Translations under genes and position numbers: made by a program
Assembly (NCBI GenBank): GCA_964399675.1
Contig: CAYNRK010000003.1
Location: 73,033-137,032, forward strand
Reading direction: 5' to 3'
DNA: 64,000 nucleotides
Source of the DNA: an uncultured Gammaproteobacteria bacterium
Lineage (GTDB): Bacteria; Patescibacteriota; Patescibacteriia; UBA9934; GWF2-40-263
In this document: one piece after another, positions 2,146 to 62,895 of the stretch
Layout: each line of letters begins with the position of its first letter
How positions within the stretch are numbered: position 1 is the first letter of the stretch
The notes under the pieces: model-generated
Told to the model about the DNA's origin: nothing
The model's input: only the letters and a program-made list of their open reading frames with translations
The model's database searches: none

Positions 2146-2268
2146 GTCATATCGACCGGGTATTATTTCTTGTCATCTCGACCGGAGGCCCGTCAGACGG
2201 GCCGGAGCGGAGAGATCTCGAATATGCGAGATCTCTCGGCTCGACAGGTGTCTCGCTCGAGATGACAA
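2146..2268. mobile_element. MITE-like palindromic repeat, family 1 (TGTCATCTCGACCG ... CGAGATGACA termini)
   Basis: Terminal inverted repeats tgtcatctcgaccg/cgagatgaca enclose an inner palindrome ggagagatctcgaatatgcgagatctctc. Six more copies are present in the window. Confidence 0.75.
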
Positions 2269-2274
2269 AAATGT

Positions 2275-5200
2275 ATGTCAAAGTTTGTCCATCTTCACAC
2301 ACATTCCCACTTTTCATTACTTGAGGCTTTGCCAAAAACAAAGGATCTTTTGAATCATGTTAAAGAATTGGAAATGGATACGGTTGCTGTGACAGATAAT
2401 GGAACAATGTACGGAGCGATCGAGTTTTATCAAAAGGCTGTGGCAATGAATATCAAACCCATAATGGGAGTTGATTTTTATCTTGCTCGTAATGGCCGTC
2501 ATCAAAAGCGTGCGCGCGTTGACAAAAAATCACATCGTCTTGTGTGTTTGGCTGAGAATAATGCCGGTTACAAAAATTTGATTCAGCTTTCCTCTATTGG
2601 TTTTTTGGAGGGTTTTTATTATAAGCCACGAATTGACAAAGAAATTTTGTCATCACTTACCAATGGTTTGATTGCGCTTTCCGGAGGGCACATGAGTGAG
2701 ATTGATGAGTTTTTGCGTCTTGATCGCGCAGATGAAGCGGAAAAAGTTATTCTTGAGTATGTAAAAATGTTTGGTGAAGGAAACTTTTTTCTAGAGTTGG
2801 TTGATCGACCAGAGATTGGTGAACAAGAGGCAGTAAACACTCAGCTTATTGAGCTTTCAAAAAAACTTAATGTTCCCACTGTTGCCACAAAGAATACATT
2901 TTATTTAAGACCGCAAGATGTTGAGGCGTGGAAAGTTTTGAATTGCATTAAGGGCGGCAAAACACTTGAGCAGTTCGATCGCATGAATCAGTTTGATTAT
3001 GATGCATCCATGGTTAGCGGTAAGTATATGGAAGCGCGTTTTAAAGATGTGCCTGAGGCGATTGAGAATACGCGTCGCATTGCTGATCGATGCAATGTTG
3101 AACTTAAGCTTGGGGAGTGGAACTTTCCGCAGTTTGTTATTCCTGAGACAAAAACGTTTAGGCAAGTTCTAACTGACAAAGCATATATAAGTCTTGAAAA
3201 AAAGCTTGGCAAGTTAACCGATGAAATGAAAGAGCGCATGGAGTATGAGCTTGAGATTATTGATCAGAAAGGTTTTTGTCCTTACTTTTTAATTGTGTCT
3301 GACTTTATTAACTGGGCTCGTGAGAATGGAATTGTTACAACAACACGTGGATCTGCCGCAGGTTCGCTTGTAAGTTATTCAATTGGAATTTCTTCAATCA
3401 ATCCACTGACATATGAATTGCCGTTTGAAAGATTTTTAAATCCTGAAAGACCGTCCGCTCCTGATATCGATGCTGACTTTGCTGATAACAGACGCGATGA
3501 GGTTTTGGATTATGTGCGAGAAAAGTATGGTCATGAAAAGGTGGCTCAGATCTGTACGTTTGGAACAATGCTTGCGCGCGGTTCTGTTCGAGATGTTGGG
3601 CGGGGTCTTGGATTTGAATACAGCATGGTTGATGAGATTGCAAAACTTGTTCCAATGGGGTCGCAAGGTTTTCCAATGACACTTGATCGTGCCCTTCAAG
3701 AATCAGTTGATCTGAAACAAAAATATGATACAGATGCAAATGTTCGTCGTGTTATTGATTTGGCTCGTCAAATTGAAGGTTGTTCGCGACATGTTTCCAT
3801 TCATGCTGCCGGCACAGTAATTTCACCAACTGATCTTACAGACTTTACGCCATTGCAAATTGATACGCGCGAGGGAAAAGTGATTACGCAGTATGAAATG
3901 AAATCTGTTGAGTCAGCCGGGCTTATAAAAATGGACTTTTTGGGAATTCGCAACTTGTCGATTTTGGGAGATGCAATTGCGCTTGTTAAAAAAACAAAAG
4001 GAATTGATATAGAACTTGAATCAATTCCAATTGATGATAAGAAAACCTTTCGATTATTGGCCAATGGACAGACAATGGGTGTGTTTCAGTTGGGTGGAGA
4101 AGGAATGACAAAGTATTTAATGGATCTAAAACCAACGCGTGTTGAGGACATTATGGCAATGGTGGCTTTATATCGTCCCGGTCCTATTGAATCAATTCCA
4201 GAGTACATCCAACGCAAACACAACCCATCTCTTATTTCATATTTGGATGATCGAATGCGAGACATTTTGAAAAAATCAAACGGAGTGATTGTTTATCAGG
4301 ATGATGTGATGCTTATTGCAATTCATTTGGCAGGTTATTCCTGGCTTGAAGCGGATAAATTAAGAAAAGCAATGGGAAAGAAAATTCCAGAGGAAATGGC
4401 AAAACAAAAAGTTAAATTGCTTGAAGGTTTCGTTGAGCACGGGCTTTCAGAAGATCAATCACAGCGATTGTGGAAATTGATTGAGCCATTTGCTGCTTAT
4501 GGATTTAACAAGAGTCATGCTGCAAGTTATGGAATGGTTGCGTATCACACTGCTTTTATGAAAGCAAATTATCCGGCTGAGTACATGACAGCGCTTATGA
4601 CTGCAGAGTCCGGAGATCTTGATAAGGTTGCAGAAGCTGTTCGTGAGTGTGAGCGTATGGGGATTGAAGTGTTGTCACCGGATATTGATGAATCGCGAAA
4701 ACACTTTACCTACATTGATGACAGCACAATTCGTTTTGGTTTGTTAGTGATTAAAAATCTTGGAGATGAGGTTGTTGAAACAATGATTGAAGAGCGAAAA
4801 CAAAATGGCTCATACAAAGACCTTACTGATTTTGCCGGCCGTGTTGCGCACAGAGCGTTTAATAAAAAGTCTCTTGAAGCATTGATCAAAGCTGGGGCGC
4901 TGGATAGATTTGCAGAAAGAAAAAGACTGCTTGAGAATGTGGATCGGATTCTCATGCACAATAAAAATATTCAAAAAGAAAAATCAGCAAATCAGCAAAG
5001 TTTGTTTTCTTTGGCTCCGGACGCAATTGATTCGGGAATTTCATTAAGAGATGTAGAGCCGGCAACAACCAAAGAGTTGCTTGTATGGGAAAAAGAACTT
5101 TTGGGTATGTATGTTTCAGCGCACCCATATGAACAAGTTGAAAAAGAGTTAGGTAAACATTTGTTGGCTTGCAATGCGCTTGACAGCAAAAAAAATCGTT

Positions 5201-5799: not shown

Positions 5800-5810
5800 T
5801 ATTTGTTGAT

Positions 5811-7025: not shown

Positions 7026-7069
7026 GAGGTTTTTGACTTATTTTTTCTTGGTGTTAAACTGAAAGCAGA

Positions 7070-7345: not shown

Positions 7346-7346
7346 T

Positions 7347-7610: not shown

Positions 7611-7623
7611 GGAGCCATGGGGT

Positions 7624-7699
7624 CAGGTCGTTAATTGTAGCGTTTGAATATTTTTGTGCCATCAAATCAAGCAAACCCGCTTGATTTTTTGGTTGATTT
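7624..7699 (+). repeat. junction repeat J1 (…CGTTAATYGTAGCGTT…ATCAAATCRAGC…GCTTGATTTTTTGGTTGA) including an intrinsic terminator hairpin
   Basis: The same roughly 60 bp module recurs at 9284-9344, and its right half recurs at 8421-8442. The hairpin atcaaatcaagc/gcttgatttt plus a T-run terminates relE. Confidence 0.6.
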
Positions 7700-7710
7700 A
7701 AAAAGAAATC

Positions 7711-8317: not shown

Positions 8318-8420
8318 CGCAGTTCCTCCTTAGTAAACGGCCGACGACATTGCCTGCCGAAAAGACATTTCAGCATATTATGTAAACTTTGTCAATTAGA
8401 AAGGGTCCAGATTGGGCGAA

Positions 8421-8442
8421 CTTGCTTGATTTTTTGGTTGAT
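8421..8442 (+). repeat. junction repeat J2 (right half only: CTTGCTTGATTTTTTGGTTGAT)
   Basis: 22-mer shared with J1 and J3, lying between GC-rich gene A and the RhuM-like cassette. Confidence 0.5.
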
Positions 8443-8639: not shown

Positions 8640-9278
8640 ATGAACAAAAAAGATAATTCAATCGTTTTATTTCATGAAAAACAGGTTCGTCGTTATTGGG
8701 ATAATGAAAAAGAGCTTTGGTATTTTTCAATTGTAGATGTAATTGAAATTCTTACTGACTCGACTATTCCAAGAAGATACTGGAGCGATCTTAAAGGTAA
8801 ATTAAAAAAAGAAGGAAGTGAAGTGTACGAAAAAATCGTACAGTTGAAAATGATTGCTCCAGATGGAAAAAAAAGAGACACGGATTGTTTTTCTACTGAA
8901 GATTTACTTCGTGTTATTCAATCAATTCCTTCACCAAAAGCTGAACCTTTTAAATTATGGCTTGCTAAAATTGGACACGAAAGAATTGAAGAAACTGAAG
9001 ACCCAGAACTTGCTTTTGAAAGAGCCATGCAAACGTATCTTAAAAAAGGACATTCTAAAGATTGGATTAATCAAAGGCTTAAAAGTATTGAAGTCAGAAA
9101 AGAATTAACTGATGAATGGAAAGAAAAAGGTATGAAAGAAGGTTTGGAATATGCAATTTTAACAGACGAAATTACAAAAGCTTGGGCTGATAAATCAGTA
9201 AAACAATACAAGACTTTCAAGAGTCTTAAAAAACAGAGTTTGAGAGACAACATGACCAATCTTGAATTGGTTTTATAA
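8640..9278 (+). pseudogene. RhuM/Bro-N-like (DinD-type) protein, C-terminally truncated
   Basis: 212 aa. The N-terminus (VRRYWDNEKELWYFSIVDVIEIL) looks Bro-N-like and the ORF ends at ...LRDNMTNLELVL directly before junction repeat J3. Family members I recall are about 100 aa longer. Confidence 0.5.
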
Positions 9279-9283: not shown

Positions 9284-9344
9284 GCCAGGTACGTTAATCG
9301 TAGCGTTATCAAATCGAGCGTAGAGGCTTGATTTTTTGGTTGAG
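9284..9344 (+). repeat. junction repeat J3 (full copy) with terminator hairpin
   Basis: cgttaatcgtagcgttatcaaatcgagcgtagaggcttgattttttggttga, nearly identical in architecture to J1. Confidence 0.6.
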
Positions 9345-10572: not shown

Positions 10573-10805
10573 GCTGCACAGAACTTGACGTCTCTCCCTC
10601 AATACGATACGATTTTTTTGTTGCGGGGACAAAGGACAAGTGGTTTCAAAAGCTGCCAACAGAGACAAAGGGTCAAGGCTGAGAGCCCTTTGAGGAAAGT
10701 CTGATATCACACCACCTTTTGAGCAACACCTACAAAGTAAGGGGTTAATCGGTGAGAAAAACCAATTAACAATTCGGGTGGAACCGTCTGGCCTTTAAGC
10801 TGGAT

Positions 10806-10838
10806 CCCGAAGCTTCACTTGCGTGAAGTTTTTTGTTT
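10806..10838 (+). terminator. intrinsic terminator
   Basis: cccgaagcttcacttgcgtgaagtt followed by TTTTGTTT. Confidence 0.6.
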
Positions 10839-10850: not shown

Positions 10851-11016
10851 AGAAATTTATGGAAATAGATTGAAATAGATTCAAAATATGGAAATAAATA
10901 GAAATAGATTGAAATAAGCAGAAATTTGTTGAATACAACTTAATTTCTATAAGTTTCTACCTATTTCCGTACTCTGAACCTATTTCCACATATTTCTACT
11001 ATATTTCAATAACAAT
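10851..11016. repeat. GAAATAG(ATT) iteron-like array arranged as a long imperfect inverted repeat upstream of thrS
   Basis: The left half ggaaatagattgaaatagattcaaaatatggaaataaatagaaatagattgaaat is mirrored by a right half ctatttcc...ctatttcc...atatttct...atttcaat around a near-palindromic centre. Confidence 0.6.
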
Positions 11017-12759
11017 ATGGACACAAAACAATTACAAAAAAACAGACATTCAATTTGCCACATGATGTCAATGGCGATTCTTGAGATTTATCCAAAAGCC
11101 GGGTTGGGTGTTGGGCCGTTTATTGAGAATGGTTTTTATCAGGACTATGATTTGCCTGAGCCAATCTCAGATGAGATTTTTGACGAGCTTGAAAAGCGAA
11201 TTAAGGAAATGATTAAGCAGAATATTGCGTTTGTTCAGCATGACATGTCTTTTGAAGATGCACTTAAGGAATACAAACACGATCCGTATAAAACAGAAAT
11301 GATCGAACAGCTAAAGGAGAAGGGGGAGAAGAGTGTTAGTTTTTTTAAGTCAGATGAGTTTGAGAACTTGTGCAAAGGGCCGCATGTTGGCACAACAAGT
11401 GAAATTGATCCAGACAGTTTTAAATTAACAAAAGTTGCTGGAGCTTATTGGAGAGGGGATGAAAAGAAAAAAATGCTTACGCGTATTTATGGTGTTGCGT
11501 TTGCAAACAAAAAGGAACTTGATGCGCATTTAAAAATGTTAGAGGAAGCTGAAAAGCGTGATCACAGAAAAATTGGTCAAGAACTGGATCTGTTTCACTT
11601 TTCAGATCTTGTGGGATCAGGCCTGCCTTTGTTCACAGAAAAGGGGACAGCAATTCGTGACGTTCTTAAAGATTTTATTTGGGATCTCATGAAGCCGTAC
11701 GGATATACTCGTGTGACAATTCCTCATATTGCAAAGTCGGACTTGTACAAAAAATCAGGCCATTGGGATAAATTTGCTGATGATATTTTTCATGTTTCAA
11801 GTCAGAAAACAGAACAGAAGTTTGTTATCAAACCAATGAACTGTCCTCATCACACTCAACTTTACGCAGCCCGTCCGCGATCATACAGAGATTTGCCGAT
11901 TCGAATGAGTGAAGTAACTGCTGTGTATCGAGATGAGAATACTGGACAACTTCAAGGTTTGTCTCGGGTTCGATCGATTACGCAGGACGATGCGCATGTA
12001 TTTTGTCGCATGGATCAGGTTGAGGAAGAGGTGTTGGCACTCTACGACATTGTGAAAAAGTTTTACGCTGCTTTTGACATGCCTCTTAATGTTGCTCTTT
12101 CTCTGAGAGACCCAAAGAAACCTGAAAAGTATTTGGGTGATGATAAAGTTTGGGAAAAGTCAGAAGGAACACTTAGAGACGTTCTTAAGAAATTGAAGAT
12201 CGAGTTTGTAGAGGAAGAAGGTGAGGCAGCTTTTTACGGACCAAAGATTGACTTTATTGCCACAGATGCAATCGGACGTAAATGGCAGCTTGCCACAATT
12301 CAGTTGGATTTCAATTTGCCTGAAAGATTTGAGCTTGAATATATTGATTCTGACGGAAAAAAGAAACGTCCAGTCATGTTACATAGAGCGATTTTAGGTT
12401 CGGTTGAAAGATTTTTGGGGGTGCTTATCGAGCACTATGCTGGAGCGTTTCCTTTTTGGCTTGCGCCAGTGCAGGTTAGGCTTGCAACAGTGAGTGAGGA
12501 TTATGTTGAGTTTGCGGAAAAGTTGAAAGCGGATTTGTTTGAAGCTGGGATTCGTATTGAGCTTGATGGGTCAGCAGAAAAAGTTGGAAAGAAGATTAGA
12601 AATGCTGCCAAGCAAAAAATTCCGTGGACAATTGTGATTGGGAAAAAAGAAGCAGAAGGAGGTGACTTCACAGTAAACGCGTTTGGCAAAGAAGAAGATC
12701 TGACAATATCTCAAGCTGATTTCGTAAAAGAAGCCCAAAAGCAAGGTTCAATTAAATAG
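11017..12759 (+). CDS. thrS: threonine--tRNA ligase (short form lacking N-terminal TGS domain)
   Basis: 580 aa with class II aaRS motifs and the ThrRS catalytic and anticodon-binding regions (HRKIGQELDLF, MNCPHH, FYGPKIDF). Confidence 0.9.
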   Translation: MDTKQLQKNRHSICHMMSMAILEIYPKAGLGVGPFIENGFYQDYDLPEPISDEIFDELEKRIKEMIKQNIAFVQHDMSFEDALKEYKHDPYKTEMIEQLKEKGEKSVSFFKSDEFENLCKGPHVGTTSEIDPDSFKLTKVAGAYWRGDEKKKMLTRIYGVAFANKKELDAHLKMLEEAEKRDHRKIGQELDLFHFSDLVGSGLPLFTEKGTAIRDVLKDFIWDLMKPYGYTRVTIPHIAKSDLYKKSGHWDKFADDIFHVSSQKTEQKFVIKPMNCPHHTQLYAARPRSYRDLPIRMSEVTAVYRDENTGQLQGLSRVRSITQDDAHVFCRMDQVEEEVLALYDIVKKFYAAFDMPLNVALSLRDPKKPEKYLGDDKVWEKSEGTLRDVLKKLKIEFVEEEGEAAFYGPKIDFIATDAIGRKWQLATIQLDFNLPERFELEYIDSDGKKKRPVMLHRAILGSVERFLGVLIEHYAGAFPFWLAPVQVRLATVSEDYVEFAEKLKADLFEAGIRIELDGSAEKVGKKIRNAAKQKIPWTIVIGKKEAEGGDFTVNAFGKEEDLTISQADFVKEAQKQGSIK

Positions 12760-13361: not shown

Positions 13362-13362
13362 C

Positions 13363-14802: not shown

Positions 14803-14931
14803 TGTCATCTCGACCGAGCGAAGCGAGTGGAGAGATCTCGAATTTACAGGATCGATCATTCAAGATTTCTCGGCTCGCGGAGCCTGTCCTGAGCGAACGA
14901 AGTGAGTCGAATGGGCTCGCTCGAAATGACA
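14803..14931. mobile_element. MITE-like palindromic repeat, family 1
   Basis: tgtcatctcgaccgagcgaagcgagtggagagatctcgaa...cgaaatgaca, lying between miaB and miaA. Confidence 0.75.
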
Positions 14932-21530: not shown

Positions 21531-24500
21531 TTATTGTTTCAACACGCCATTGATTTGTTTTTCAAGAAATTTGTATTCTGCGGTTTGTTGTAATCCTGCG
21601 TTTTCCATTTCTGCAAGAACACGAGTTTTTGACAGTGTGTCTACAAAGTAGGCTGTTCTTCTTGTGATCCAGTCAATACCCGATTTTTCAGATTTTGCAA
21701 TTCTGTTTACAATAGCAAACAACTCACCTCTTGATTTTCCGAGTTTTTTCAAGGCTGCGTCTTCGTTGTACCAAGTTCCTTTTTCTGTAAATGCAAAATC
21801 AGTGACTTTTCCCCCGTCATATTTGAATTTTACCTTCATTCCTTTTTTACTAAGGGTTGTTTCAACGGGTGATTCTAGTTTTGTTTCAGGAGTTTCTTCG
21901 GACGGGATTTCTTGTTCTTGTTGAGTTTCTGCTGAAGCTTCGGTTGTGGGTTCTTCTGTTCCAGCTTCCGCTGCTTCTGCTTGAGCAGCCGCAGCTTCGG
22001 CTTCTGGTTTAGCAGGTTCCGGCGCAGGTTCTGGAGCGGGTTCAGGAGATTCTTCCGGTATTGGCGGTTTTCCTTCACGAACTCGTTTTGCCATTTCTTC
22101 AACGTTTCGAGCCACATCACCTTGGTGTGCAGCTTCTTCTGTTGAATTGTCCCGAATGATTCTTGCAATATCATCAGTTTGTCCATCGATTCGTCTCTGG
22201 ATGAGTTTTGCAATTTCACCACTTTCTTCTTCTGTTGAATCTAAATTGGCGATTGCTAATTTATCAGCCTCAACTTGTTTTATAATCCAATCAAGATCCT
22301 GCATGCGTGTGTCAGGTGCTCTAAGCAGAAATCCAATTTGTTCTTTTGAAAGATTTTGTTTTTCAAGTAGTTTTGCAAACTCAGCTTTGTCTAGTTTATC
22401 CGGAGTCTCAACAATTGGAGCAATTTTGTCAGCGGCTCTTCCGATTTCAGCCCTACGTGCTTCTGTCATTGGTTCAGCTTCTGCGTCAGCTGCTTTTGCA
22501 TCCGGTCCTGGTTCAGGCTTAGCTGCTGCGTCTGGTTGTGTGGCTGTGGTCTGAGCTTCTGGTTCTGGGGCAGGTGGAGCTTCTACGGCTGCTGGAGGAG
22601 CCGTGGCAGGGGTTTCTGGCGCTGCTGCTGGTGTTTCCGCATCACTATCAGCTGCGTCTGGTACGGCTTGGGCTTCTACTTTTGGAGCGGGTGTTGGATC
22701 TTCAAATTTTTCGTATTCCGGCTTTTTGTAGTTATAAACAATTCCTTTTTCTTGAAGTTCTTCCATGTCAGCCGGTTTGCCTGACTCAGTATCCACAAAA
22801 GTAAAATTGATCTCACCATTTTCACCTGGACTAATTGCAATAGCGACCTTATCCACCCCTTTAGCACTTAAACCAGTCCATCCACCCTCTTCAGTATGAA
22901 GGGCTTTTTTTGCAGCAATAAACGCAGTTTTGCGAACCCATTTTTTAACTACTTTTGCATCATTTATATCACCTTGATAGCCAAATTTTTCTGGATCAGC
23001 TTTTAGTTGACGCTGAGCAATTCTAATAATTCCATCACCTTTTTGAATAGTTGCTTGTTCAATTTGTTCTTCTGAAAATTCAGGAGCTTCTTCAGCTGCA
23101 GCTTCGGTTGCTTGTTCAGCATCAGCGGTTGGTTCTGCGTCAGCAGCAGCTTCTGTTTTTGGTTCTGGTTCAACCTCTTTTGCATCAGCGGTTGGCTCAG
23201 GCTCAGTGTTAGGGGTAGGTTCTGATTCGGGAGCTTCTTCGGCCTCTGGCACTGCTTCTGCTTGCTCTACCTCCGGTTCCGGTGCTTCAACTTCCGTACC
23301 TTCAACTGCAGTTATTTCTGTATCAGTTTTAGCTGACAGAACATCTGAAGCCGCCTGTTTTGCAGTTTTTTCAGAAAGCAAACCAAAAGTGACTTTGTCT
23401 AATTGTTCAGAAAAACTATCACCAGCATATCCAGCAGCACCTTTTTCTTCCAAACCCTGAAGTGCTTTTTCAATTGCACCAGAGACACCGCCTTCGCCTG
23501 ATAATTCTCCGCCAGCCAGAGTTGCAAAACCTGCAAAACGTGCAACAGTTCCGGCTGCTTGTACTGCATTTAGAATTTTTTGTTTTTTGGTTTCACCTTC
23601 TTTTAGAGTTAGTTTACGCCATGTTTCTGAAAAACCATTGACTACAAGTTCTTTTGCCAATCCTTCTGTACGCTCACCCGATTCCCGCTCTTGTTGGACT
23701 TTTTTATAACGTTCAAGCAGTGCAATGGCTCCATATCCAACACCTCGTAATGTGGCAAGTCCGGTTGAGATCAGAGCAGTGTTAAGAGATTCCTTTAAGG
23801 CCGCTGTTCCTTTGACTCGAGTTTGAATAAATTGATCCAGCAGTTCGGCTGTCTCTTGGTGTTGTTCTTCCTCAATATCACCAGAATCTTCGCGCTGTTT
23901 TTCAAGAATTTCCTGAACACGTGCAAGCATTTCTGTTTTCTTTTCTGCTGATAAAAATACAGATTCATTTATTTTGGTTTCTAAAGCTCGCTTTCTTGCT
24001 ATTATCGGAGCTGCATCAAGTGCTATTTGTTCTGCATGATAATCACGAAAGCCTGTTTCAGGATCAATAAACGCCGATTCATCAAGTTCTATATCTCCAT
24101 ACTCAGCATTTTCAAAAGATTCCAAGATCCGTTGTTTTTCTTTTCCGGTTGTATATTTTTGAAAAAACCAAGCTGGCACGTCATGTAAAGATTTAAAACC
24201 ACCAAGGCTGGCTGCAATACCAAGAGCTCCAACTCCAACCGCTTTTGCAATTTGAGTTTTGTTCATTTCAGCTTCATCTTCCTCTGGTAAACGTTCGCCG
24301 CGAAATTTTTTGTAAAGATTTGATGCGCGATCTCTAAAACCTCCAGCAATAGACCGAAGCACACTCCGACTTTCTGTTGCTGGGTCTTGAGGTTCTCCTT
24401 CTGCTTCTTCTGGTGAACCAACAGCTTCTGGTGAGGCATCAGGTTCTGTAATTGGATCTAGAAATTCAGATATGTCAGGTAGGTCACTGTCCGGAGCTGA

Positions 24501-24551
24501 CTCAGTGCCACCAGTATCAAATGGGCCGGGTGTTGGTGCTTCTGGACTCAT
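21531..24551 (-). CDS. large acidic low-complexity protein (Ala/Glu/Pro-rich repeats), hypothetical, possibly surface-associated
   Basis: 1006 aa with PEPAPEPAPEPAKPEAEAAA-type tracts between globular segments. No family recognised. Confidence 0.55.
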   Translation of the reverse strand: MSPEAPTPGPFDTGGTESAPDSDLPDISEFLDPITEPDASPEAVGSPEEAEGEPQDPATESRSVLRSIAGGFRDRASNLYKKFRGERLPEEDEAEMNKTQIAKAVGVGALGIAASLGGFKSLHDVPAWFFQKYTTGKEKQRILESFENAEYGDIELDESAFIDPETGFRDYHAEQIALDAAPIIARKRALETKINESVFLSAEKKTEMLARVQEILEKQREDSGDIEEEQHQETAELLDQFIQTRVKGTAALKESLNTALISTGLATLRGVGYGAIALLERYKKVQQERESGERTEGLAKELVVNGFSETWRKLTLKEGETKKQKILNAVQAAGTVARFAGFATLAGGELSGEGGVSGAIEKALQGLEEKGAAGYAGDSFSEQLDKVTFGLLSEKTAKQAASDVLSAKTDTEITAVEGTEVEAPEPEVEQAEAVPEAEEAPESEPTPNTEPEPTADAKEVEPEPKTEAAADAEPTADAEQATEAAAEEAPEFSEEQIEQATIQKGDGIIRIAQRQLKADPEKFGYQGDINDAKVVKKWVRKTAFIAAKKALHTEEGGWTGLSAKGVDKVAIAISPGENGEINFTFVDTESGKPADMEELQEKGIVYNYKKPEYEKFEDPTPAPKVEAQAVPDAADSDAETPAAAPETPATAPPAAVEAPPAPEPEAQTTATQPDAAAKPEPGPDAKAADAEAEPMTEARRAEIGRAADKIAPIVETPDKLDKAEFAKLLEKQNLSKEQIGFLLRAPDTRMQDLDWIIKQVEADKLAIANLDSTEEESGEIAKLIQRRIDGQTDDIARIIRDNSTEEAAHQGDVARNVEEMAKRVREGKPPIPEESPEPAPEPAPEPAKPEAEAAAAQAEAAEAGTEEPTTEASAETQQEQEIPSEETPETKLESPVETTLSKKGMKVKFKYDGGKVTDFAFTEKGTWYNEDAALKKLGKSRGELFAIVNRIAKSEKSGIDWITRRTAYFVDTLSKTRVLAEMENAGLQQTAEYKFLEKQINGVLKQ

Positions 24552-26219: not shown

Positions 26220-26278
26220 ATTGAAATACCGCCCTCGTCTCCGAAGAGACAAGGGCGGCAGTGAGGACGGTTGCGATC

Positions 26279-27694: not shown

Positions 27695-27797
27695 CTGTCC
27701 TCCGGTCGCATAAAGCGAGTGAGGGAGCCTGGAAAATCCGTCCAGTACGGTTTTGGTGCAACTTGCACCAATCTCGGAATCGCACCGAGAACGACTA

Positions 27798-27826
27798 ATA
27801 ATAGCACAAAAATGCGGTTTTGTCAA
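27798..27826 (-). promoter_or_regulatory. sigma70-type promoter of gene C (TTGACA-N17-TATTAT)
   Basis: Minus-strand reading ttgacaaaaccgcatttttgtgctattat, with a perfect -35 and a 17 nt spacer. Confidence 0.5.
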
Positions 27827-27827
27827 C

Positions 27828-27856
27828 CAAAATACTAACCCCTAGGGTTAGTATTT
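27828..27856 (-). terminator. intrinsic terminator of rplA (perfect palindrome)
   Basis: aaaatactaacccctagggttagtatttt followed by T-runs on both strands. Confidence 0.65.
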
Positions 27857-38175: not shown

Positions 38176-38308
38176 GTGTCATTGCGAGGAGGCCGTCAGG
38201 CCGACGAAGCCCTCGGCCGTGCCCGTCCTACGGGCGAGGCAATCCTCGTATTAATGAATACTATACTACGGAGATTGCTTCGGCCAGCTTCGCTGGCCTC
38301 GCAATGAC
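38176..38308. mobile_element. MITE-like palindromic repeat, family 2 (GTCATTGCGAGG … CCTCGCAATGAC termini)
   Basis: tgtcattgcgaggaggccgtcaggccgacgaagc...gaggcaatcctcgtat...cctcgcaatgac. Related copies are at 52347, 56178 and 57241. Confidence 0.7.
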
Positions 38309-41837: not shown

Positions 41838-43001
41838 ATGTTAACACAAGATTTTGACTATTATTTACCACAAAATTTGATTGCCCAGCAATCAGTGGAG
41901 CCACGAGACAACTCGCGGCTTATGATTTTAGATCGACAAACAGGGAAAAGGGAACACAAAGTTTTTCATCAAATTATTGATGAATTGGTTTCTGGAGACG
42001 TTCTTGTGATGAATAACACAAAAGTTTTTCGCGCTCGTCTTAGAACAATTGATGGAATTGAGGTGTTTTTGGTTCGAGCAAGATCTGGAAAGGTTTGGGA
42101 AGTCCTTATTCGTCCCGGACGAAAAGTAAAAATTAATCAAACTATTGAAATCAGTTCCTCGAAAAATAAGAAGACTAATTTACGCCGATCGTCGGAAAAT
42201 AGTCTTCAGTCTTTGTTTGGTCAAGTTCTTGGGAAGCACTCGAATGGAATTGTGTTAGTGAGATTTGATCGCGCTGCTGAAGATGTTGTTGTGTTTGCAA
42301 ATGAACACGGTGAGATTCCGGTCCCTCCTTATGTTGAACATCAACCTGATCGACTTGAGGATTATCAAACAGTTTATGCCGAGCACACTGGTTCAGTTGC
42401 TGCGCCAACCGCTGGTTTTCATTTTACAAAAGAGTTGATTGAAAAGTTAAAACAAAAAGGTGTTCAGTTTGAGTTTGTAACTTTGCATGTTGGACTTGGA
42501 ACATTTAGACCAATGAAAACAGAAACTTTGGAAGAACATGAAATGCACGCAGAGTTTGTGTCAGTTGATAAAGAAACAGCACAGCGAATCAATCAAGCAA
42601 AACAAGAGGGCTGTCGTGTTATTGCTGTTGGTACAACAACAGTGCGGACGCTTGAGGGCGTTGCCCGTATATGTCATCTCGAGCTTGCCGAGAGATCTCG
42701 AATATGCGAGATCTCTCCGCTCGCGGAGCCTGCCCTGAGCGAACGAAGTGAGTCGAATGGGCTCGGTCGAGATGACAATATTTTGAGATCTTTTACAGGA
42801 GATGTAAATTTATTTATCAAACCCGGATTCGATTTCAAGGTGATAGATGGATTGATAACAAACTTTCATTTGCCAAAGTCGACTTTGTTGGTTTTAGTTT
42901 CAGCACTTGCTGGGAGGGAGAATATTTTAAAAGCTTACAAAGAAGCTGTTGAAAAGAAATATCGCTTTTATTCGTTTGGTGATGCGATGTTTATTAGATA
43001 G
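41838..43001 (+). CDS. queA: S-adenosylmethionine:tRNA ribosyltransferase-isomerase, carrying an in-frame MITE insertion
   Basis: N-terminal FDYYLPQNLIAQQSVEPRDNSRLMILDR, plus PPYVEH and GTFRP blocks. A 105 bp family-1 MITE at 42672-42777 adds ICHLELAERSRICEISPLAEPALSERSESNGLGRDDNIL. Confidence 0.85.
   Translation: MLTQDFDYYLPQNLIAQQSVEPRDNSRLMILDRQTGKREHKVFHQIIDELVSGDVLVMNNTKVFRARLRTIDGIEVFLVRARSGKVWEVLIRPGRKVKINQTIEISSSKNKKTNLRRSSENSLQSLFGQVLGKHSNGIVLVRFDRAAEDVVVFANEHGEIPVPPYVEHQPDRLEDYQTVYAEHTGSVAAPTAGFHFTKELIEKLKQKGVQFEFVTLHVGLGTFRPMKTETLEEHEMHAEFVSVDKETAQRINQAKQEGCRVIAVGTTTVRTLEGVARICHLELAERSRICEISPLAEPALSERSESNGLGRDDNILRSFTGDVNLFIKPGFDFKVIDGLITNFHLPKSTLLVLVSALAGRENILKAYKEAVEKKYRFYSFGDAMFIR
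42672..42777. mobile_element. family-1 MITE inserted in-frame within queA
   Basis: tgtcatctcgagcttgccgagagatctcgaatatgcgagatctctccgctcg...ggtcgagatgaca. Confidence 0.75.
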
Positions 43002-44801: not shown

Positions 44802-45584
44802 ATGGGACAGTTCGCTGTCAGCGATGGACAGAGACTCAAGGTCTTTGATCAATGTGTGGATCTGCAACGCCGCCTGAGAGAAGGTGGTCTGGATCCCGAA
44901 CTGATGAGCGTGGGTCTTCAGGCGCTTCTTACCGGGGTTGATCCAGAAGAGCTTGCAGCTGCTCGTGGCAAGCGCGAACAGCCTGCCAAGCGCAATCTCG
45001 CCGCGGAACGCCGTAACGAGATCACGGCGTTCTACCGCGGTCTCGGGTTTGACACGCTCGAGATCCCTGTGCCCACCATGGGCGGTAAGCGCGTTTCCAA
45101 CAATGAGTTCGGCCGTCGAGCCAAGGCTGGTCAGGCGCTCTTCTTTCGTCCGGCTACCTCACTCATTTCCTACAACAGGTTCATGACTGCTGTGGGTCAG
45201 ATGGATCATTGGACAGTACTCGATGAGGCCGAGTGCGAGAACATCGCCTGGGAGCCAACAGAGACTGGCTACTGGTTCTGGGCTGAGATCCAGGATTCCT
45301 GCCTCCGCGTGGGTACATCCTGGAACGATTTGACGGCCGAGCACAACCTCCTCTGCCTGGAGGAGTACATGATCGTCTGGCACGTCATGCGCGTGCTCGA
45401 GAGCATCATGATCGATTGTGAGACTTGGTCATGGCTACGCACTCGCTACCAGGCCGTTCCTGGCCCCAGTGCTCTCTACGCCCTCATGCATTACGATGAG
45501 GTGCATGTTGGCTGGAACAGGTCTAGGGGTCTCTCGCTTGGCCACCGCGAAACGGGTGGTCGTATCGCGGAAAAGCTCGTCTGA
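44802..45584 (+). CDS. GC-rich foreign ORF D, hypothetical protein (260 aa)
   Basis: Roughly 58% GC with an SD aAAGGAtagtcATG. The composition is protein-like (W/Y/H/E-rich C-terminal half). No family recognised. Confidence 0.55.
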   Translation: MGQFAVSDGQRLKVFDQCVDLQRRLREGGLDPELMSVGLQALLTGVDPEELAAARGKREQPAKRNLAAERRNEITAFYRGLGFDTLEIPVPTMGGKRVSNNEFGRRAKAGQALFFRPATSLISYNRFMTAVGQMDHWTVLDEAECENIAWEPTETGYWFWAEIQDSCLRVGTSWNDLTAEHNLLCLEEYMIVWHVMRVLESIMIDCETWSWLRTRYQAVPGPSALYALMHYDEVHVGWNRSRGLSLGHRETGGRIAEKLV

Positions 45585-50074: not shown

Positions 50075-50172
50075 TGTCATCTCGACCGAGGCCAAAGGCC
50101 GAGCGGAGAGATCTCGAATCTGCGAGATCCCTCGGCTTCGGCCCGTCGGACGGGCCTTCGCTCGGGATGACA
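50075..50172. mobile_element. MITE-like palindromic repeat, family 1
   Basis: tgtcatctcgaccgaggccaaaggccgagcggagagatctcgaatctgcgagatccctcgg...cgggatgaca. Confidence 0.75.
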
Positions 50173-52346: not shown

Positions 52347-52437
52347 GTGTCATTGCGAGAAGGCTCGTCAGACGAGCCGACGAAGCAATCCTCGTATACG
52401 AAGATTGCTTCGCCCACTTCGTTCGCTCGCAATGACA
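52347..52437. mobile_element. MITE-like palindromic repeat, family 2
   Basis: tgtcattgcgagaaggctcgtcagacgagccgacgaagcaatcctcgtatacgaagattgcttcgcc...cgcaatgaca. Confidence 0.7.
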
Positions 52438-56177: not shown

Positions 56178-56340
56178 GGTCATTGCTTTTCTTCCCGCGT
56201 CACTGCTCTCCCCCTGCGTCGTTGCGAGCGAAGCGAAGCAATCTCCGTAAAGAACTATGGGGGACAGTCACGTTGTATATAATTTCGGCAGTACTCGCGT
56301 GGCTCCGTGCTGGCGAAATTATATACAACGTACCTGTTGT
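56178..56340. mobile_element. composite palindromic repeat, family 2' (homologous to 57241-57440)
   Basis: cgttgcgagcgaagcgaagcaatctccgtaaagaa...acgttgtatataatttcggcag...cgaaattatatacaacgt. About 160 bp are shared with the 57.3 kb copy. Confidence 0.65.
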
Positions 56341-56383
56341 GGAGATACTGACAGTTTGTTGGAGGGTTGTGAAAGGCTTTTGG

Positions 56384-56447
56384 GGTCAAGTCTAAAATCT
56401 AAACTTTGTAGTCATTTTAAAAGTTTAGATTTTAGACTTGACCCCCA
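56384..56447. repeat. 64 bp perfect hairpin (26 bp arms)
   Basis: ggggtcaagtctaaaatctaaacttt...aaagtttagattttagacttgacccc. Confidence 0.65.
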
Positions 56448-56472
56448 TGTTCCTTGAGGGCTCGCTTGTTTA

Positions 56473-56650
56473 TGTCATCTCGACCGAGCGAAGCCGAGGG
56501 GTCTCGCATATTGGAACAACACGATTCGAGATCTCTCCGCTCCGGCCCGTCTGACGGGCCTCCGGTCGAGATGACATTAAAGAAACGCTCCGGTCGAAAT
56601 GACATGTATCAGTTGTCATCCCGAGCGAAGCCGAGGGATCTCGAATTATG
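56473..56650. mobile_element. family-1 MITE, one full plus one partial tandem copy
   Basis: tgtcatctcgaccgagcgaagccgagg...cggtcgagatgaca followed by cggtcgaaatgaca...tgtcatcccgagcgaagccgagggatctcgaat. Confidence 0.7.
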
Positions 56651-57240: not shown

Positions 57241-57440
57241 CGCCTTTCACCCTGTGTCATTGCGAGGCCTGAAAGGCCGAAGCAATCCTCGTATCATCAC
57301 CCTGCGTCGTTGCGAGGAGGCCCGTCAGACGGGCCGACGAAGCAATCTCCGTAAAGAATTTTGGATGACAGTCACGTTGTATAATTTCGGCAGACTCGCT
57401 TCGCTCGTGCTGGCGAAATTATCCAACGTACCTGTTAATG
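57241..57440. mobile_element. composite palindromic repeat, family 2 plus 2'
   Basis: tgtcattgcgaggcctgaaaggccgaagcaatcctcgtat then cgttgcgaggaggcccgtcagacgggccgacgaagcaatctccgtaaagaa...cgttgtataatttcggcag...cgaaattatccaacgt. Confidence 0.65.
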
Positions 57441-57445
57441 GTGAC

Positions 57446-58243
57446 ATGAGTGTTCGTCGGAAGTTTGTAAAAAATATGAAAACAACAATCAAAAATAGAA
57501 AGGGGGAGAAGGTATCAGTTCTAGTTGAGCAAGTTGAGAATCAAAAAGGTTTGGCTTTTGTTGTGCATGGACTTGGTGGGTTTAAAGAGCAGCCGCATAT
57601 TACAAAAATGGCCGACGTGTTTAAATCAAATGGTATTTCAGTTGTTCGGTTTGATACAACAAACACTTTGGGAGAAAGTGATGGAAATTATGAAGATGCA
57701 ACAGTTACGAATTATTATGAGGATCTAGAGGATGTTATGGCTTGGTCGGGGTCGCAAGAGTGGTATGAAGAACCGTTTTGGTTGGCAGCGCATAGTTTAG
57801 GTGGAATTTGTATTAGTTTGTTTGCCGAGAAGCATCCAGAAAAAGTAAAAGCTTTGGCGCCGATTTCTACAACAGTTTCAGGGAAGTTGAGTCTGGAAAC
57901 ACCGTCCTATGAAAAAGATAAAAAAGGTTGGGAAGAGACAGGGTGGCTCGTTCAGGAGAGTATTTCAAAGCCTGGCGAAGTTAAACGACTTAAGTGGTCT
58001 CACATGGAGGACAGATTGAAATATGATTTACTTCCAGAGGCTCATAAGTTAACCATGCCGGTTTTGTTGGTTGTTGGCTCAAAGGATGAATCAACTCCAG
58101 TTGGTGATCAAAAGATTTTATTTGATGCATTGCCTGAACCAAAAGAGATCCATGTGATAGATGGATCTTGTCATAATTTTAGAAAAGAAGAGTATCGGGA
58201 GGAGTTAGGTGAGATTTTTGATAATTGGATTAAGTCTATTTAG
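57446..58243 (+). CDS. alpha/beta-fold hydrolase
   Basis: HGLGG oxyanion region, the nucleophile elbow AHSLGG and a C-terminal His (DGSCHNF). Confidence 0.65.
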   Translation: MSVRRKFVKNMKTTIKNRKGEKVSVLVEQVENQKGLAFVVHGLGGFKEQPHITKMADVFKSNGISVVRFDTTNTLGESDGNYEDATVTNYYEDLEDVMAWSGSQEWYEEPFWLAAHSLGGICISLFAEKHPEKVKALAPISTTVSGKLSLETPSYEKDKKGWEETGWLVQESISKPGEVKRLKWSHMEDRLKYDLLPEAHKLTMPVLLVVGSKDESTPVGDQKILFDALPEPKEIHVIDGSCHNFRKEEYREELGEIFDNWIKSI

Positions 58244-58600: not shown

Positions 58601-59215
58601 TTACACTGGATTGAATTGACGTATGACGGCTCTGACAACCCCCTGGATAATACAATCCTGAACAAATATCGGATCCATGGTGCTGTTAGCAGGTTGAAGC
58701 CTAATGCGATTTCTCTCTCTATAAAACCGTTTCAGTGTTGCATAGGCATTGTCCAGCAAGGCTACAACAACCTCACCGTTTTTTGGAGATGGATTTCTTT
58801 CGATCACAACATAATCTCCATCATAAATTCCATCGTCAATCATTGATTTTCCTTTAACTTGCAATACATAAGAGTTTTCACCATCAACAACAAAGTTTAC
58901 TGGTACAGCCATTGTTTCATTTTGTTCAACAGCTTCAATTGGTTCACCTGCAGTAATCAGTCCAGACAAGGGGAGTAGTACTGCCATTTCAAATGGTTTT
59001 GCATGTACAAGTTCCATTGACCTAGCTTCGCCATCATGACCAAGTGTGATCTTGCCCTTTTCTGCAAGAGCTTGCACGTGTGCATGAACAGTGGCAGGGG
59101 AGGATAGGCTAAAGTGCTCGCCAATCTCTCTGTAAGATGGTGCATATCCAAAGTCTTCTACATAAGAACGAATAAAAGCCAGAACCTCTGTTTGTTTTTT
59201 GGTTAAATTAGACAT
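58601..59215 (-). CDS. lexA: LexA repressor
   Basis: N-terminal wHTH (LTKKQTEVLAFI) and an S24 peptidase domain with the Ala-Gly cleavage site and Ser/Lys dyad (GKSMIDDGI...). Confidence 0.85.
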   Translation of the reverse strand: MSNLTKKQTEVLAFIRSYVEDFGYAPSYREIGEHFSLSSPATVHAHVQALAEKGKITLGHDGEARSMELVHAKPFEMAVLLPLSGLITAGEPIEAVEQNETMAVPVNFVVDGENSYVLQVKGKSMIDDGIYDGDYVVIERNPSPKNGEVVVALLDNAYATLKRFYRERNRIRLQPANSTMDPIFVQDCIIQGVVRAVIRQFNPV

Positions 59216-59222
59216 ATTTTTT

Positions 59223-59330
59223 TGTCATTTCGACCGAGCGCTAGCGAGTGGAGAAATCTCGAATTACGTTTTCAACATTCGAGATCCCTCGGCTTCGCCC
59301 GGCAGCTGCCGGGCTTCGCTCGGGATGACA
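59223..59330. mobile_element. MITE-like palindromic repeat, family 1, between the lexA start and its promoter region
   Basis: tgtcatttcgaccgagcgctagcgagtggagaaatctcgaat...cgggatgaca. Confidence 0.7.
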
Positions 59331-59335
59331 GGGTT

Positions 59336-59400
59336 AGTTCGTTTTATGTTCGTATTATATCCGAACAAAAATCGAACACAAGAGTTGGGTTGTGGATAAA
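59336..59400 (-). promoter_or_regulatory. putative lexA promoter with GTTCG…CGAAC inverted repeat overlapping TATAAT (candidate SOS box)
   Basis: Minus-strand reading tgttcgatttttgttcggaTATAATacgaacataaaacgaac. A DnaA-box-like TGTGGATAA sits at 59391-59399. Confidence 0.3.
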
Positions 59401-59412
59401 AAGAAATGACCC

Positions 59413-59976: not shown

Positions 59977-60009
59977 TGGTTAAGCTCCTGTTGGATTGTG
60001 CGATGCTCC

Positions 60010-60038
60010 AAAGTAACAACTTTCCCCCATTCTGTCAA
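60010..60038 (-). promoter_or_regulatory. sigma70-type promoter (TTGACA-N17-TACTTT) for the methyltransferase
   Basis: Minus-strand reading tgTTGACAgaatgggggaaagttgtTACTTT. Confidence 0.4.
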
Positions 60039-60087
60039 CATAAATCCATTGATCAGGGGCTTGTATTTTGATAAGGTTGGGGTCGTT

Positions 60088-61131: not shown

Positions 61132-61160
61132 AATGTTGGCGTAATGTACTCAAATAATTT

Positions 61161-61754
61161 ATGAAAAGATTTATTCCAGTAGTGCTTTGTGCACTTGTGT
61201 TGACAGGAGCTGGGTGTTCATCAGAGCCTGTCACAGAGGAGGAATTAACTATTACTTTTAATGAGCCTGTGCAAGAAACAATAACCTGGGAGTTTCCAGG
61301 AGCTCTCCCAGACGAGGAGATTCAAAACAAACAAATAAGACTTGCAACTGAAAAAGGTGACATCGTGTTTGAGCTTTTTGCAGACACTGCACCAAAAACA
61401 GTTTCTAACTTTGTTTACTTAACTAACGGTGGATATTACAACGGACTTACCTTTCATCGTCGTGAAGAAGGGTTTGTGATTCAAGGTGGAGATCCATCTG
61501 GGAATGGAACCGGTGGTCCTGGATATAAGTTTGAAGATGAGTTAAGTGATCCGCACAGTTATGATCGAGGAATTGTTGCAATGGCAAACTCCGGTCCAAA
61601 CACAAACGGTTCACAATTTTTTATAATGCTTGGTGATGTACCGCTTCCAAAAAGTTATTCAATTTTTGGGAGAGTTACAGAAGGAATGGAAGTTGTTGAC
61701 CAAATTCAGATCGGTGACAAAATGGAAGAAGTAAGAGTGGAGGATAAACAGTAA
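61161..61754 (+). CDS. ppiB: cyclophilin-type peptidyl-prolyl cis-trans isomerase, lipoprotein signal
   Basis: Lipobox LTGAGCSS and cyclophilin blocks (FHRREEGFVIQGGDP, GIVAMANSGPNTNGSQFFI). Confidence 0.85.
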   Translation: MKRFIPVVLCALVLTGAGCSSEPVTEEELTITFNEPVQETITWEFPGALPDEEIQNKQIRLATEKGDIVFELFADTAPKTVSNFVYLTNGGYYNGLTFHRREEGFVIQGGDPSGNGTGGPGYKFEDELSDPHSYDRGIVAMANSGPNTNGSQFFIMLGDVPLPKSYSIFGRVTEGMEVVDQIQIGDKMEEVRVEDKQ

Positions 61755-61761
61755 ATTAACT

Positions 61762-62895
61762 ATGAACAAGAAACACAGGTTCGGATTTTACGTGCCTGTG
61801 TTTTTGATTTTATTGATTGCGTTGCCGTTTGTTGTTTCAGGTTTTCTTGTTAATCGTATGTCATCCCGACCGAGCGAAGCGAGCGGAGGGATCTCGAATA
61901 CGCGAGATCTCTCCGTTCCGTCCGGCCAAAGGCCAGACTCCAGTCGAGATGACACAAAGGTTCCTCTCCCAACAGAAGTCCGCGGGATTTATTGGACAAG
62001 TTCAACAGCACATTCAAAACGAGCTGATCAGTTGCTTTCGTACATGAAATCAACCGGACTAAACACAGTTGTTATTGATCTTAAAACAGACGCAGGTAAA
62101 GTTGTGATGACTGATCCCACAGTTCTGGAGAAGTTGGCTGAGGAAAATATTTATCGAATCGCCAGACTTTCAGTAATGCGAGATGGTGCTTATGCGCGCG
62201 AGCATCCAGAGTTTGCACTCAAGTCAGCAACAGGGGATTTTTGGTATGACAACATTGGTTCGGTCTGGGTTGATCCTGCAGCTGAGCAAGTTTGGGAGAA
62301 TGCGATTGTGCTGGCAAAAGAGGCTTATGCAAATGGATTTGATGAGATCCAATTTGATTACGTTCGTTTTCCTTCGGACGGAGCAGTGAGTTCAATTAAA
62401 TATCCTGTTTATAATTTTTCAAAATCAAAAGCTGAGGTAATGGAAAAGTTTTTTGAGTTTGTTGGAGGTGAAATGATGCAAGAGGGTATTCCTGTTTCTT
62501 TTGATTTGTTTGGTATGACATTTTGGACTTTTGAAGATTTTAGAATCGGACAGAGACTCATAGATGTTTTGCCAAATGCAGATTTTATTTCACCAATGGT
62601 TTATCCGTCACATTACCCCGATTGGTTTGAGGGGTATGGAAATCCAGCGGAGTATCCATACGAGATTGTAAAACGTTCGCTTGATGAGGGAACAAAGTTA
62701 ATGCGAGGATTCTTTTCTGGTAGTGAAAAAGAACTTAGAAACAAATTTAGACCATGGATTCAAGATTTTGACATTGGCGCAGTTTATACTTCTGAAAAAA
62801 TAGAAGCACAAATAAAAGCTTGTCGCGATGCGGGCGCGTCCGGTTGGATTTTGTGGAATGCGCGTAATGTTTATGAGCCAGCAAATTATCAATAA
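61762..62895 (+). CDS. glycoside-hydrolase-like TIM-barrel protein (DUF4015/GHL-type) with in-frame MITE insertion after the N-terminal TM segment
   Basis: FDEIQFDYVRFP block. A family-1 MITE at 61858-61954 encodes MSSRPSEASGGISNTRDLSVPSGQRPDSSRDDTKV. Confidence 0.55.
   Translation: MNKKHRFGFYVPVFLILLIALPFVVSGFLVNRMSSRPSEASGGISNTRDLSVPSGQRPDSSRDDTKVPLPTEVRGIYWTSSTAHSKRADQLLSYMKSTGLNTVVIDLKTDAGKVVMTDPTVLEKLAEENIYRIARLSVMRDGAYAREHPEFALKSATGDFWYDNIGSVWVDPAAEQVWENAIVLAKEAYANGFDEIQFDYVRFPSDGAVSSIKYPVYNFSKSKAEVMEKFFEFVGGEMMQEGIPVSFDLFGMTFWTFEDFRIGQRLIDVLPNADFISPMVYPSHYPDWFEGYGNPAEYPYEIVKRSLDEGTKLMRGFFSGSEKELRNKFRPWIQDFDIGAVYTSEKIEAQIKACRDAGASGWILWNARNVYEPANYQ
61858..61954. mobile_element. family-1 MITE inserted in-frame within a CDS
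   Basis: tgtcatcccgaccgagcgaagcgagcggagggatctcgaatacgcgagatctctccg...cgagatgaca. Confidence 0.75.

Follow-up and report, generated by a model that had tools for sequence, protein, structure and literature searches.

What kind of element is the palindromic repeat of about 100 bp that recurs through a 64-kb stretch of a candidate phyla radiation (CPR) genome, and how does it come to be read as protein in two genes? The stretch analyzed here (contig CAYNRK010000003.1, positions 73,033 to 137,032, 64,000 nucleotides; hereafter the window) had been described in an initial annotation as carrying copies of a miniature inverted-repeat transposable element (MITE), termed Family 1, two of which lie in frame in protein-coding genes. 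We confirmed that the window holds a real dispersed repeat family. Each full copy is probably an inverted pair of tagged hairpin units of the repetitive extragenic palindromic (REP) type, that is, a selfish, non-autonomous element resembling a REP dimer, a bacterial interspersed mosaic element (BIME), or a REPIN. This kind of repeat is already known; what appears to be new is its occurrence in Patescibacteria, its hairpin design, how widely the family is spread, and the recurrent site in QueA (six lineages).

Seventeen matches to TGTCATCTCGACCG (two mismatches at most) were found in the window against 0.32 expected, and none of 100 shuffled sequences reached 17. These matches pair into seven full Family-1 elements of 96-129 bp (Table 1). 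All seven copies of the initial annotation were recovered with coordinates correct to within 1 nt, and its nested palindromes of about 100-130 bp were borne out, since the folds of all but one copy are much more stable than those of shuffled sequences (z -4.9 to -7.4 for six of the seven); the folding excess of the copy at 14803 was weaker (z -2.5). The full elements share a common plan: both termini together form a closing stem, the hairpin GGAGAGATCTCGAAT...ATTCGAGATCTCTCC occupies the centre, and small G+C hairpins of interchangeable type fill one or two further slots. Copies in spacers lie between co-directional genes separated by short distances, beginning 8-13 nt after eno and the miaB-like gene and ending 7-8 nt before the start codons of dnaE, gpmI, and lexA. 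The copies that had been placed at gene starts do lie there, ending 7 nt ahead of both the dnaE ATG and the mechanically called start of miaA.

A second subfamily of units was also identified, and the small module GGCCCGTCAGACGGGCC is common to it and to Family 1. With both subfamilies counted, the window contains 22 tagged units at 11 places, arranged as nine inverted dimers, one direct pair, and two singletons; the inverted dimers include four Family-1 heterodimers. The nearest relatives of the QueA and DUF4015 proteins, at about 60% identity, are annotated as Candidatus Uhrbacteria or Patescibacteria, indicating that the host is a CPR bacterium. Only one genuine tagged unit was present in the syntenic 21-kb stretch of a related Uhrbacteria locus (L125), and the expansion of units in this genome is therefore lineage-specific. 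The G+C content of the window is about 41%, most of its genes have no Shine-Dalgarno sequence, and its spacers are short. The window belongs to a scaffold of 264 kb from a groundwater-type metagenome assembly (ENA ERZ23499040, SUTE22-1 scaffold_13), with which positions 31838-53001 show 100% identity.

Table 1. Tagged units, orphan termini, and associated genes in the window
Feature	Coordinates	Strand	Details
Orphan ("stuttered") left terminus TGTCATATCGACCG	2145-2158		12 nt upstream of the full element at 2171-2267
Family-1 dimer, 97 bp	2171-2267		Spacer before dnaE (ATG at 2275); end 7 nt ahead of ATG; fold z -7.4
Family-1 heterodimer, 129 bp	14803-14931		CT-type left arm, TT-type right arm; between miaB-like gene and miaA
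Second-subfamily dimer TGTC...GACG	38177-38309		Stem ATTGC/GCAAT
queA coding sequence, 387 aa	41838-43001	+	PF02547, E 1.5e-123
Family-1 dimer, 106 bp	42672-42777		In frame in queA, codons 279-314
Family-1 heterodimer, 98 bp	50075-50172		eno-gpmI spacer
Second-subfamily dimer, 90 bp	52348-52437		Between PAP2 gene and CTP-transferase gene
Single second-subfamily unit	56217-56242	+	CGTC-GTTGC-GAGCGAAGCGAA-GCAAT-C
Family-1 dimer, 104 bp	56473-56576		Both termini exact
Orphan right terminus CGGTCGAAATGACA	56591-56604
Single tagged unit (monomer)	56614-56640	+	TGTC-ATCCC-GAGCGAAGCCGA-GGGAT-C
Two second-subfamily units	57255-57346	+	TGTC-ATTGC... and CGTC-GTTGC...; direct, not inverted, orientation
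lexA	58601-59215	-
Family-1 heterodimer, 108 bp	59223-59330		TT-type and CC-type arms; 8 nt upstream of lexA start
DUF4015 (putative glycoside hydrolase) coding sequence	61762-62895	+	PF13200, E 1.1e-81
Family-1 heterodimer, 96 bp	61859-61954		In frame in DUF4015 gene; 32-aa linker after membrane anchor

Genuine units read (C/T)GTC-AT NNN-GA...GA-N'N'N' AT-C, with GT in place of AT in two units of the window. The tag is TGTC in 19 and CGTC in 3 of the 22 units, and lies outside the predicted stem of the arm. The 5-bp stems found in the window were ATCTC/GAGAT, ATCCC/GGGAT, ATTTC/GAAAT, and, in the second subfamily, ATTGC/GCAAT. The stem is followed by tandem G.A mismatches and then by a short G+C stem with a GNA triloop or by a nested extra hairpin, and the tails are C-rich and begin with C (CTC, CCT, CTT). 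In the dimers, two such units with outward tags surround a structured spacer that holds a hairpin of 12-16 bp. A generic scan for the tag plus a 5-bp hairpin returned 55 matches versus 43 in a Markov background and so did not outperform it; the scan became specific only once the AT...AT-C constraint was imposed.

The paired-terminus pattern was searched in a species-representative genome collection, for which we estimated a chance expectation far below one match. At least 120 loci were found. Among the matches listed, these belonged to Acidobacteriota, Planctomycetota, Patescibacteria, Firmicutes, Bifidobacterium, Flavobacterium, and Luteimonas and other Proteobacteria, with further matches in Gemmatimonadota, Verrucomicrobiota, Chloroflexota, Kiritimatiellia, and Omnitrophota, and they included cultured isolates as well as metagenome-assembled genomes (MAGs). 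Identical or near-identical 14-nt termini thus occur in more than ten bacterial phyla, and arms near-identical to those of the window were present in an Oscillospiraceae MAG, a Bifidobacterium isolate, and a gammaproteobacterial MAG. Only 9 matches were obtained in 2.9 million viral contigs, indicating that phages are no obvious reservoir. In an Oscillospiraceae MAG (L054, 5964-6838), three element copies lie exactly 386 bp apart in a tandem array of a longer unit.

The arms of these elements covary internally. Among the matches listed, the inner purine pair was Watson-Crick complementary to the terminal pyrimidine pair in 178 of 188 scorable arms (128 elements, many phyla), compared with a mean of 57 and a maximum of 77 under permutation. 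In all four heterodimers of the window the two arms carry different stems (e.g., a left arm with ATTTC/GAAAT and a right arm with ATCCC/GGGAT), and each arm matches itself while the termini mismatch each other; this self-matching was also observed in 32 of 46 heterodimers among the matches listed. The centre of the short arm was GAGCG-N-AGCGA in 51 of 142 cases, with all four bases at N, and GACCGAAGGGA in 16 more. This motif can be read as a 2-bp G+C stem with a GNA triloop and flanking tandem G.A pairs. The oligonucleotide d(GCGAAGC) is a very stable DNA mini-hairpin, and the similarity of the arm centre to it hints at a single-stranded DNA form. Units also occur free-standing, both in the window and in the queA genes of L125, L126, and L141. 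Nested copies and duplicated termini were common among the related loci, and nested or stuttered copies were identified in L043, L066, L121, and the window.

These properties are at odds with the MITE label of the initial annotation. A classical MITE would be an internally deleted insertion sequence (IS) of the DDE type with 14-nt terminal inverted repeats (TG...CA), moved in trans by the transposase of its parent, and the size of 96-129 bp, the inverted-repeat ends starting with TG and ending with CA, and the multiple dispersed copies all agree with such an origin. However, each arm pairs with itself, many of the dimers are heterodimers, units with a single arm stand on their own, and neither an IS with TGTCATYYCGASCG ends nor a DDE transposase was detected in the window or in the related loci; the one rve-type gene, in L125, lies away from any unit. 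Moreover, target-site duplications are absent. Of 127 related elements, 10, 1, and 1 had duplications of 2, 3, and 4 bp, respectively, versus about 8, 2, and 0.5 expected by chance, and three 5-bp end matches appear to include loci listed twice. No consistent direct duplication was observed at the ends of the window copies, and the sole bias around the 127 elements was a slight preference for pyrimidines at positions -1 and -2. We consequently regard a MITE origin as very unlikely.

REPINs and BIMEs, with their REP-associated tyrosine transposases (RAYTs), have reportedly been described by Bertels and Rainey in 2011 and by Nunvar and colleagues in 2010. The elements of the window resemble them in consisting of two inverted REP hairpins on either side of a spacer that form one long hairpin of about 100 nt, in occurring in many copies, and in lacking target-site duplication. 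They differ in that REPINs carry the tag GTAG and have a cognate single-copy RAYT flanked by REPs, whereas the tag here is TGTC or CGTC and no RAYT was found. The QMITEs of Coxiella (Wachter et al. 2018, PMC5896051) are likewise short non-autonomous repeats able to add peptide segments to proteins; MITEs are defined by terminal inverted repeats together with target-site duplications and a parent IS, and the present elements lack the duplications.

A closer counterpart is the CGTC-tagged superfamily, one of the two superfamilies (GTAG-tagged and CGTC-tagged) into which REPs have been sorted (Di Nocera, De Gregorio, and Rocco 2013, BMC Genomics 14:522, PMC3733652). According to that study, its members have an unpaired 4-nt tag CGTC (variants TGTC and CCTC), a short unpaired tail with the consensus CCA, and stems in which AT is nearly always the first dinucleotide. 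Most form inverted dimers around spacers of 20-100 bp, often with stem-loops of their own, and heterodimers are frequent. The units lie close to gene ends or, in many cases, in frame inside genes (including queA and dnaE of R. conorii), and have no associated transposase. The published families CGTC-1 to CGTC-4 have perfect stems of 8-9 bp and loops of 4-5 nt (PMC3733652). The units of the window share the tag, the AT-beginning stem, the inverted homo- and heterodimers with structured spacers, and the position near gene ends and sometimes in frame. A search of the 64-kb window and some 130 related loci recovered no transposase gene flanked by them. Their tails (CTC, CCT) begin with C, but CCA is not the consensus. 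The five phyla published for CGTC-type REPs do not include Patescibacteria, and of the phyla listed here only Proteobacteria and Bacteroidetes are among them. Judged from these sequence features, the units of the window appear to be a new family of the CGTC/TGTC-tagged REP superfamily. CGTC-type REPs are a class without a known mobilizing enzyme, and the window suggests that they reach into the candidate phyla radiation.

The initial annotation had compared the repeat with the Rickettsia palindromic elements (RPEs), and this parallel proved apt. RPE-6 and RPE-4 of R. conorii correspond to CGTC-1 and CGTC-4, respectively, and dRS3 of Neisseria to CGTC-1 (PMC3733652). Like the window elements, these two RPEs are small palindromic repeats translated in frame in conserved proteins, including QueA and DnaE of R. 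conorii, and the in-frame copies here lie at a tolerant surface site in QueA and in the post-anchor linker of the DUF4015 protein. A unit back-inferred from the published R. conorii peptides VIPAKAGI and CHSRESGNP, (C/T)GTC-ATTCCCGC-GAAA-GCGGGAAT-CC, has the same tag and the same outer stem (ATTCC...GGAAT) as TC-type arms of other phyla, and its inner stem and loop differ. The host also differs, being a free-living or episymbiotic CPR bacterium instead of a Rickettsia, and the majority of the present copies are dimeric, with additional modules and a length of about 100 bp. RPE-1, a longer family, is not related. Since RPE-6 and RPE-4 were assigned by Di Nocera et al. (2013) to the superfamily that shares the tag and AT-stem signature, the resemblance probably reflects kinship beyond mere analogy.

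If the copies are indeed REP-type dimers, the units would be selfish, non-autonomous DNA that is mobilized by being copied as single-stranded hairpins by an enzyme acting in trans. This enzyme would most likely be an HUH/Y1 (RAYT-like) nuclease or another hairpin-processing enzyme. Units may land preferentially in or beside existing hairpins, and the nested copies and duplicated ends would follow from such a preference. Selection would then keep only those copies that occupy a short spacer or that leave the reading frame open within a surface loop or linker of a protein.

Searches for a partner enzyme were made at several levels. All-versus-all clustering of open reading frames (ORFs) from 120 loci gave generic families only, with no recurrent neighbor family. 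A phmmer search with E. coli RayT had no match, and a hidden Markov model built from 16 published RAYT/TIRYT sequences recovered only two pseudogene fragments, both in an Acidobacteriota MAG (L005, 2843-3977). These TIRYT-like Y1 transposase fragments lie about 1.1 kb from an element, and the hairpins on either side of them (GGGGCTGGCCC... and CCCACCCGTG...) belong to another repeat; the same locus has a lone right terminus of the Family-1 type at about 4062-4075. The data suggest that one hairpin design with the same 14-nt termini is present in isolates and MAGs of more than ten phyla, a breadth that makes the enzyme question testable by phylogenetic profiling.

Several observations weigh against the REP-dimer interpretation. 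The 64-kb window encodes no Y1/HUH or other transposase, and Y1 genes were found in only one of about 130 related loci (L005), where they are pseudogenized and not flanked by tagged units. Four near-identical strains did not differ in the presence or absence of any copy. With standard DNA parameters, the folding of isolated arms did not exceed that of shuffled sequences (z -1.4 to +0.8); such parameters give no credit to G.A and GNA motifs, and the arm hairpin is thus supported by covariation and by these motifs instead of by folding energy. The design also departs from that of CGTC-1 to CGTC-4, with a 5-bp stem, tandem G.A, a G+C stem of 2-3 bp, and a GNA triloop or nested hairpin; as the stem of 8-9 bp and loop of 4-5 nt are missing, we did not file the units in those families. 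The kinship with RPE-6 was drawn from published peptides and not from a DNA alignment. Finally, near-identical termini over more than ten phyla are unusual for lineage-bound REPs and could mean a conserved cellular function.

In the comparison with near-identical strains, all differences from the window fell within 44855-44931 (15 substitutions and 2 indels), the other approximately 13 kb being identical. The variable site lies in an ORF of 260 aa (44802-45584) with no Pfam match, and one strain (L002) has an extra 192-bp tandem copy of window positions 44805-44996, giving a protein of 324 aa.

A conserved function would be expected if the repeat were a selected cis-acting structure, with a role in host RNA (as transcript stabilizer, processing site, or translation modulator in operons) or as a DNA site for a conserved protein. 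The great stability of the folds, the conservation of tag and stem in many phyla, and the position of the copies at short distances from co-directional genes, as in other REPs, fit such a role. Against it, internal modules vary freely, occupancy is lineage-specific (in L125, eno and gpmI overlap, so that the spacer holding a copy in the window does not exist there), and the copies within coding sequence speak against a fixed regulatory role. No Rfam family matched the elements, either in the window and 18 loci of other phyla at the gathering threshold or in the window at E<=5. A role as intrinsic terminator was rejected because the hairpins have no T-run on their 3' side. We consider a selected cis-acting structure a less likely but live alternative as the primary explanation; it would be compatible with the REP-dimer interpretation, since REPs are often co-opted.

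The in-frame copies provide a view of the repeat at the protein level. In queA, the first base of the element coincides with the start of codon 279, and translation runs through it without a stop, giving about 36 residues (CHLELAERSRICEISPLAEPALSERSESNGLGRDD(N)), in agreement with the in-frame insertion of about 35 aa initially proposed. The copy and its surroundings are the same in four independent assemblies, and thus it is not an assembly artifact. As an alignment with orthologs revealed, the segment is missing from the four closest QueA proteins, and the T. maritima structure (1VKY) has about 3 residues at this site, between a helix and a strand. An AlphaFold model based on 60 orthologs retained the QueA fold (pLDDT 87, pTM 0.86) and placed the insert in this helix-strand loop, where it is predicted to extend the helix and to continue as a low-confidence loop. 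A second lineage-specific QueA segment, SSKNKKTNLRRSSENS (residues approximately 105-121, window 42150-42200), is also absent from orthologs and 1VKY; it has low model confidence and no similarity to the repeat.

The 96-nt element in the DUF4015 gene encodes 32 residues (MSSRPSEASGGISNTRDLSVPSGQRPDSSRDD) that immediately follow the hydrophobic segment at the N-terminus. Since the membrane anchor itself aligns with orthologs, the element lies within the gene. At the position of the element these orthologs carry an unrelated linker of 25-45 aa, and the element therefore constitutes the linker without lengthening the protein. Accordingly, the earlier statement that the copy adds 32 aa after the anchor stands for the in-frame segment and its place, and does not stand for the gain in length. 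The linkers of two DUF4015 orthologs (P0124 and P0128) contain ...SLGRDD... and ...CHPERNEGS..., peptides typical of tagged units, and the same linker may be occupied by tagged units in other lineages.

Both segments could in principle be ancestral protein sequence that merely resembles the repeat, as related peptides (CHPE..., RHP...) occur at the same QueA loop in other Patescibacteria and the DUF4015 orthologs have a linker of similar length. In the DNA, however, neither is partial: each has the two termini and the hairpin at the centre and matches the intergenic copies; the QueA segment has no counterpart in the closest orthologs and solved structures, and the DUF4015 linkers of orthologs are unrelated in sequence. 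This identity to intergenic copies effectively refutes an ancestral origin for the window copies, which we regard as extremely improbable. The two genes illustrate cleanly how a repeat can supply peptide to proteins of essential pathways in a reduced genome. Pfam and NCBIfam searches with the element peptides gave no match, and a protein-database search with the concatenated peptides returned two matches without recovering even the two host proteins, and so gives no information on how many in-frame copies exist globally. In CPR annotations, the units create spurious ORFs (CHPERSEGS, VISTE..., ...SLGRDD) and lengthen real proteins.

The QueA loop is occupied repeatedly. A check at the DNA level in six Patescibacteria lineages (the window, L125, L126, L139, L140, and L141) identified a TGTC/CGTC-tagged monomer or dimer in this loop in each of them, always 3-5 codons after the conserved RTLEG and always in the frame TGT CAT or CGT CAT; the three monomers have the same orientation. 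In L125 and L126, which are close relatives, the units keep the tag and an ATCCT/AGGAT stem, and their interiors are entirely different. A sequence-defined insertion hot spot was rejected, as the flanks of the six occupied sites have no common motif. Among 80 parsable orthologs, the loop length was bimodal (about 12-13 aa and 25-27 aa, with a tail of 34 aa or more), and a clear tag-encoded CH(P/S/L)E or RHP signature was present in 10 of the 80 loops. As far as these sequences go, the pattern fits one old insertion that was inherited, remodeled, and in places decayed; repeated insertion into the sole tolerant loop could have produced it as well. The loop thus represents a natural series for the fate of an insert: empty, monomer, dimer, and possibly decayed.

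A common class of QueA loops of 25-26 aa (..MKKTHPGEKNS..LPxEGFS) was observed in P0045, P0069, P0070, P0107, and others. Its length equals that of loops with a unit monomer (e.g., P0028, VSHLCHPERLTGVEGSRVLPEEGFS), and it could be a decayed repeat-derived segment. In another QueA ortholog (P0013), the C-terminal extension SPCHSDRGALPTGRQVGRRTEESHDRR resembles read-through into a tagged unit 3' of the gene.

The breadth of the family and the QueA loop series can also be joined in a wider proposal, to which we give a low, tentative weight. A pan-bacterial TGTC-tagged hairpin element with a 5-bp AT stem, tandem G.A pairs, and a GNA triloop, spanning CPR, Acidobacteriota, Planctomycetota, Firmicutes, Actinobacteria, Bacteroidetes, Proteobacteria, Gemmatimonadota, Verrucomicrobiota, and Chloroflexota, might have had its near-identical termini kept by one conserved enzyme that processes single-strand hairpins. 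A single ancient insertion in the QueA loop after RTLEG might then have been inherited, remodeled (from monomer to dimer, with the interior swapped), and, in many lineages, reduced by decay to an ordinary loop. If so, the repeat would be a lasting source of new protein segments.

Two further searches returned little. A metagenome scan with the central hairpin gave three matches, from another organism, and no further copies of this genome. In the literature, the terminal 13-mers matched only unrelated primers, and no description of the repeat in CPR bacteria was found.

Other repeats are present in the window. A third one is imperfectly palindromic over about 70 nt (GACAGTCACGTTGTATA...TATACAACGTACCTGT); its two copies, at 56245-56350 and 57345-57460, are 86% identical, and each copy lies directly 3' of a CGTC-GTTGC unit, forming a composite block. 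The same repeat-rich spacer contains a near-perfect palindrome of 73 nt (GGGGTCAAGTCTAAAATCTAAAC..., 56377-56449), to which miRNA families matched spuriously, below threshold, on either strand. Three copies of a hairpin resembling a terminator and followed by a T-run (..GCTTGATTTTTTGGTTGA; 7661-7696, 8406-8441, and 9308-9343) surround a Bro-N domain gene (8640-9278) and unannotated ORFs.

Additionally, a T-box-leader-like match over the full model was detected at 10617-10812, upstream of the threonyl-tRNA synthetase gene (11017-12759); it is sub-threshold (43 bits versus a gathering threshold of 93, E 3e-6) and is followed by a short run of GAAATAGATTGAAATA repeats at 10852-10916. An ORF of 1006 aa with low-complexity repeats (21531-24551) and a fully overlapping antisense pair of ORFs of about 520 aa each (26261-27838), in a region with a higher G+C content of 0.47, had no Pfam match.

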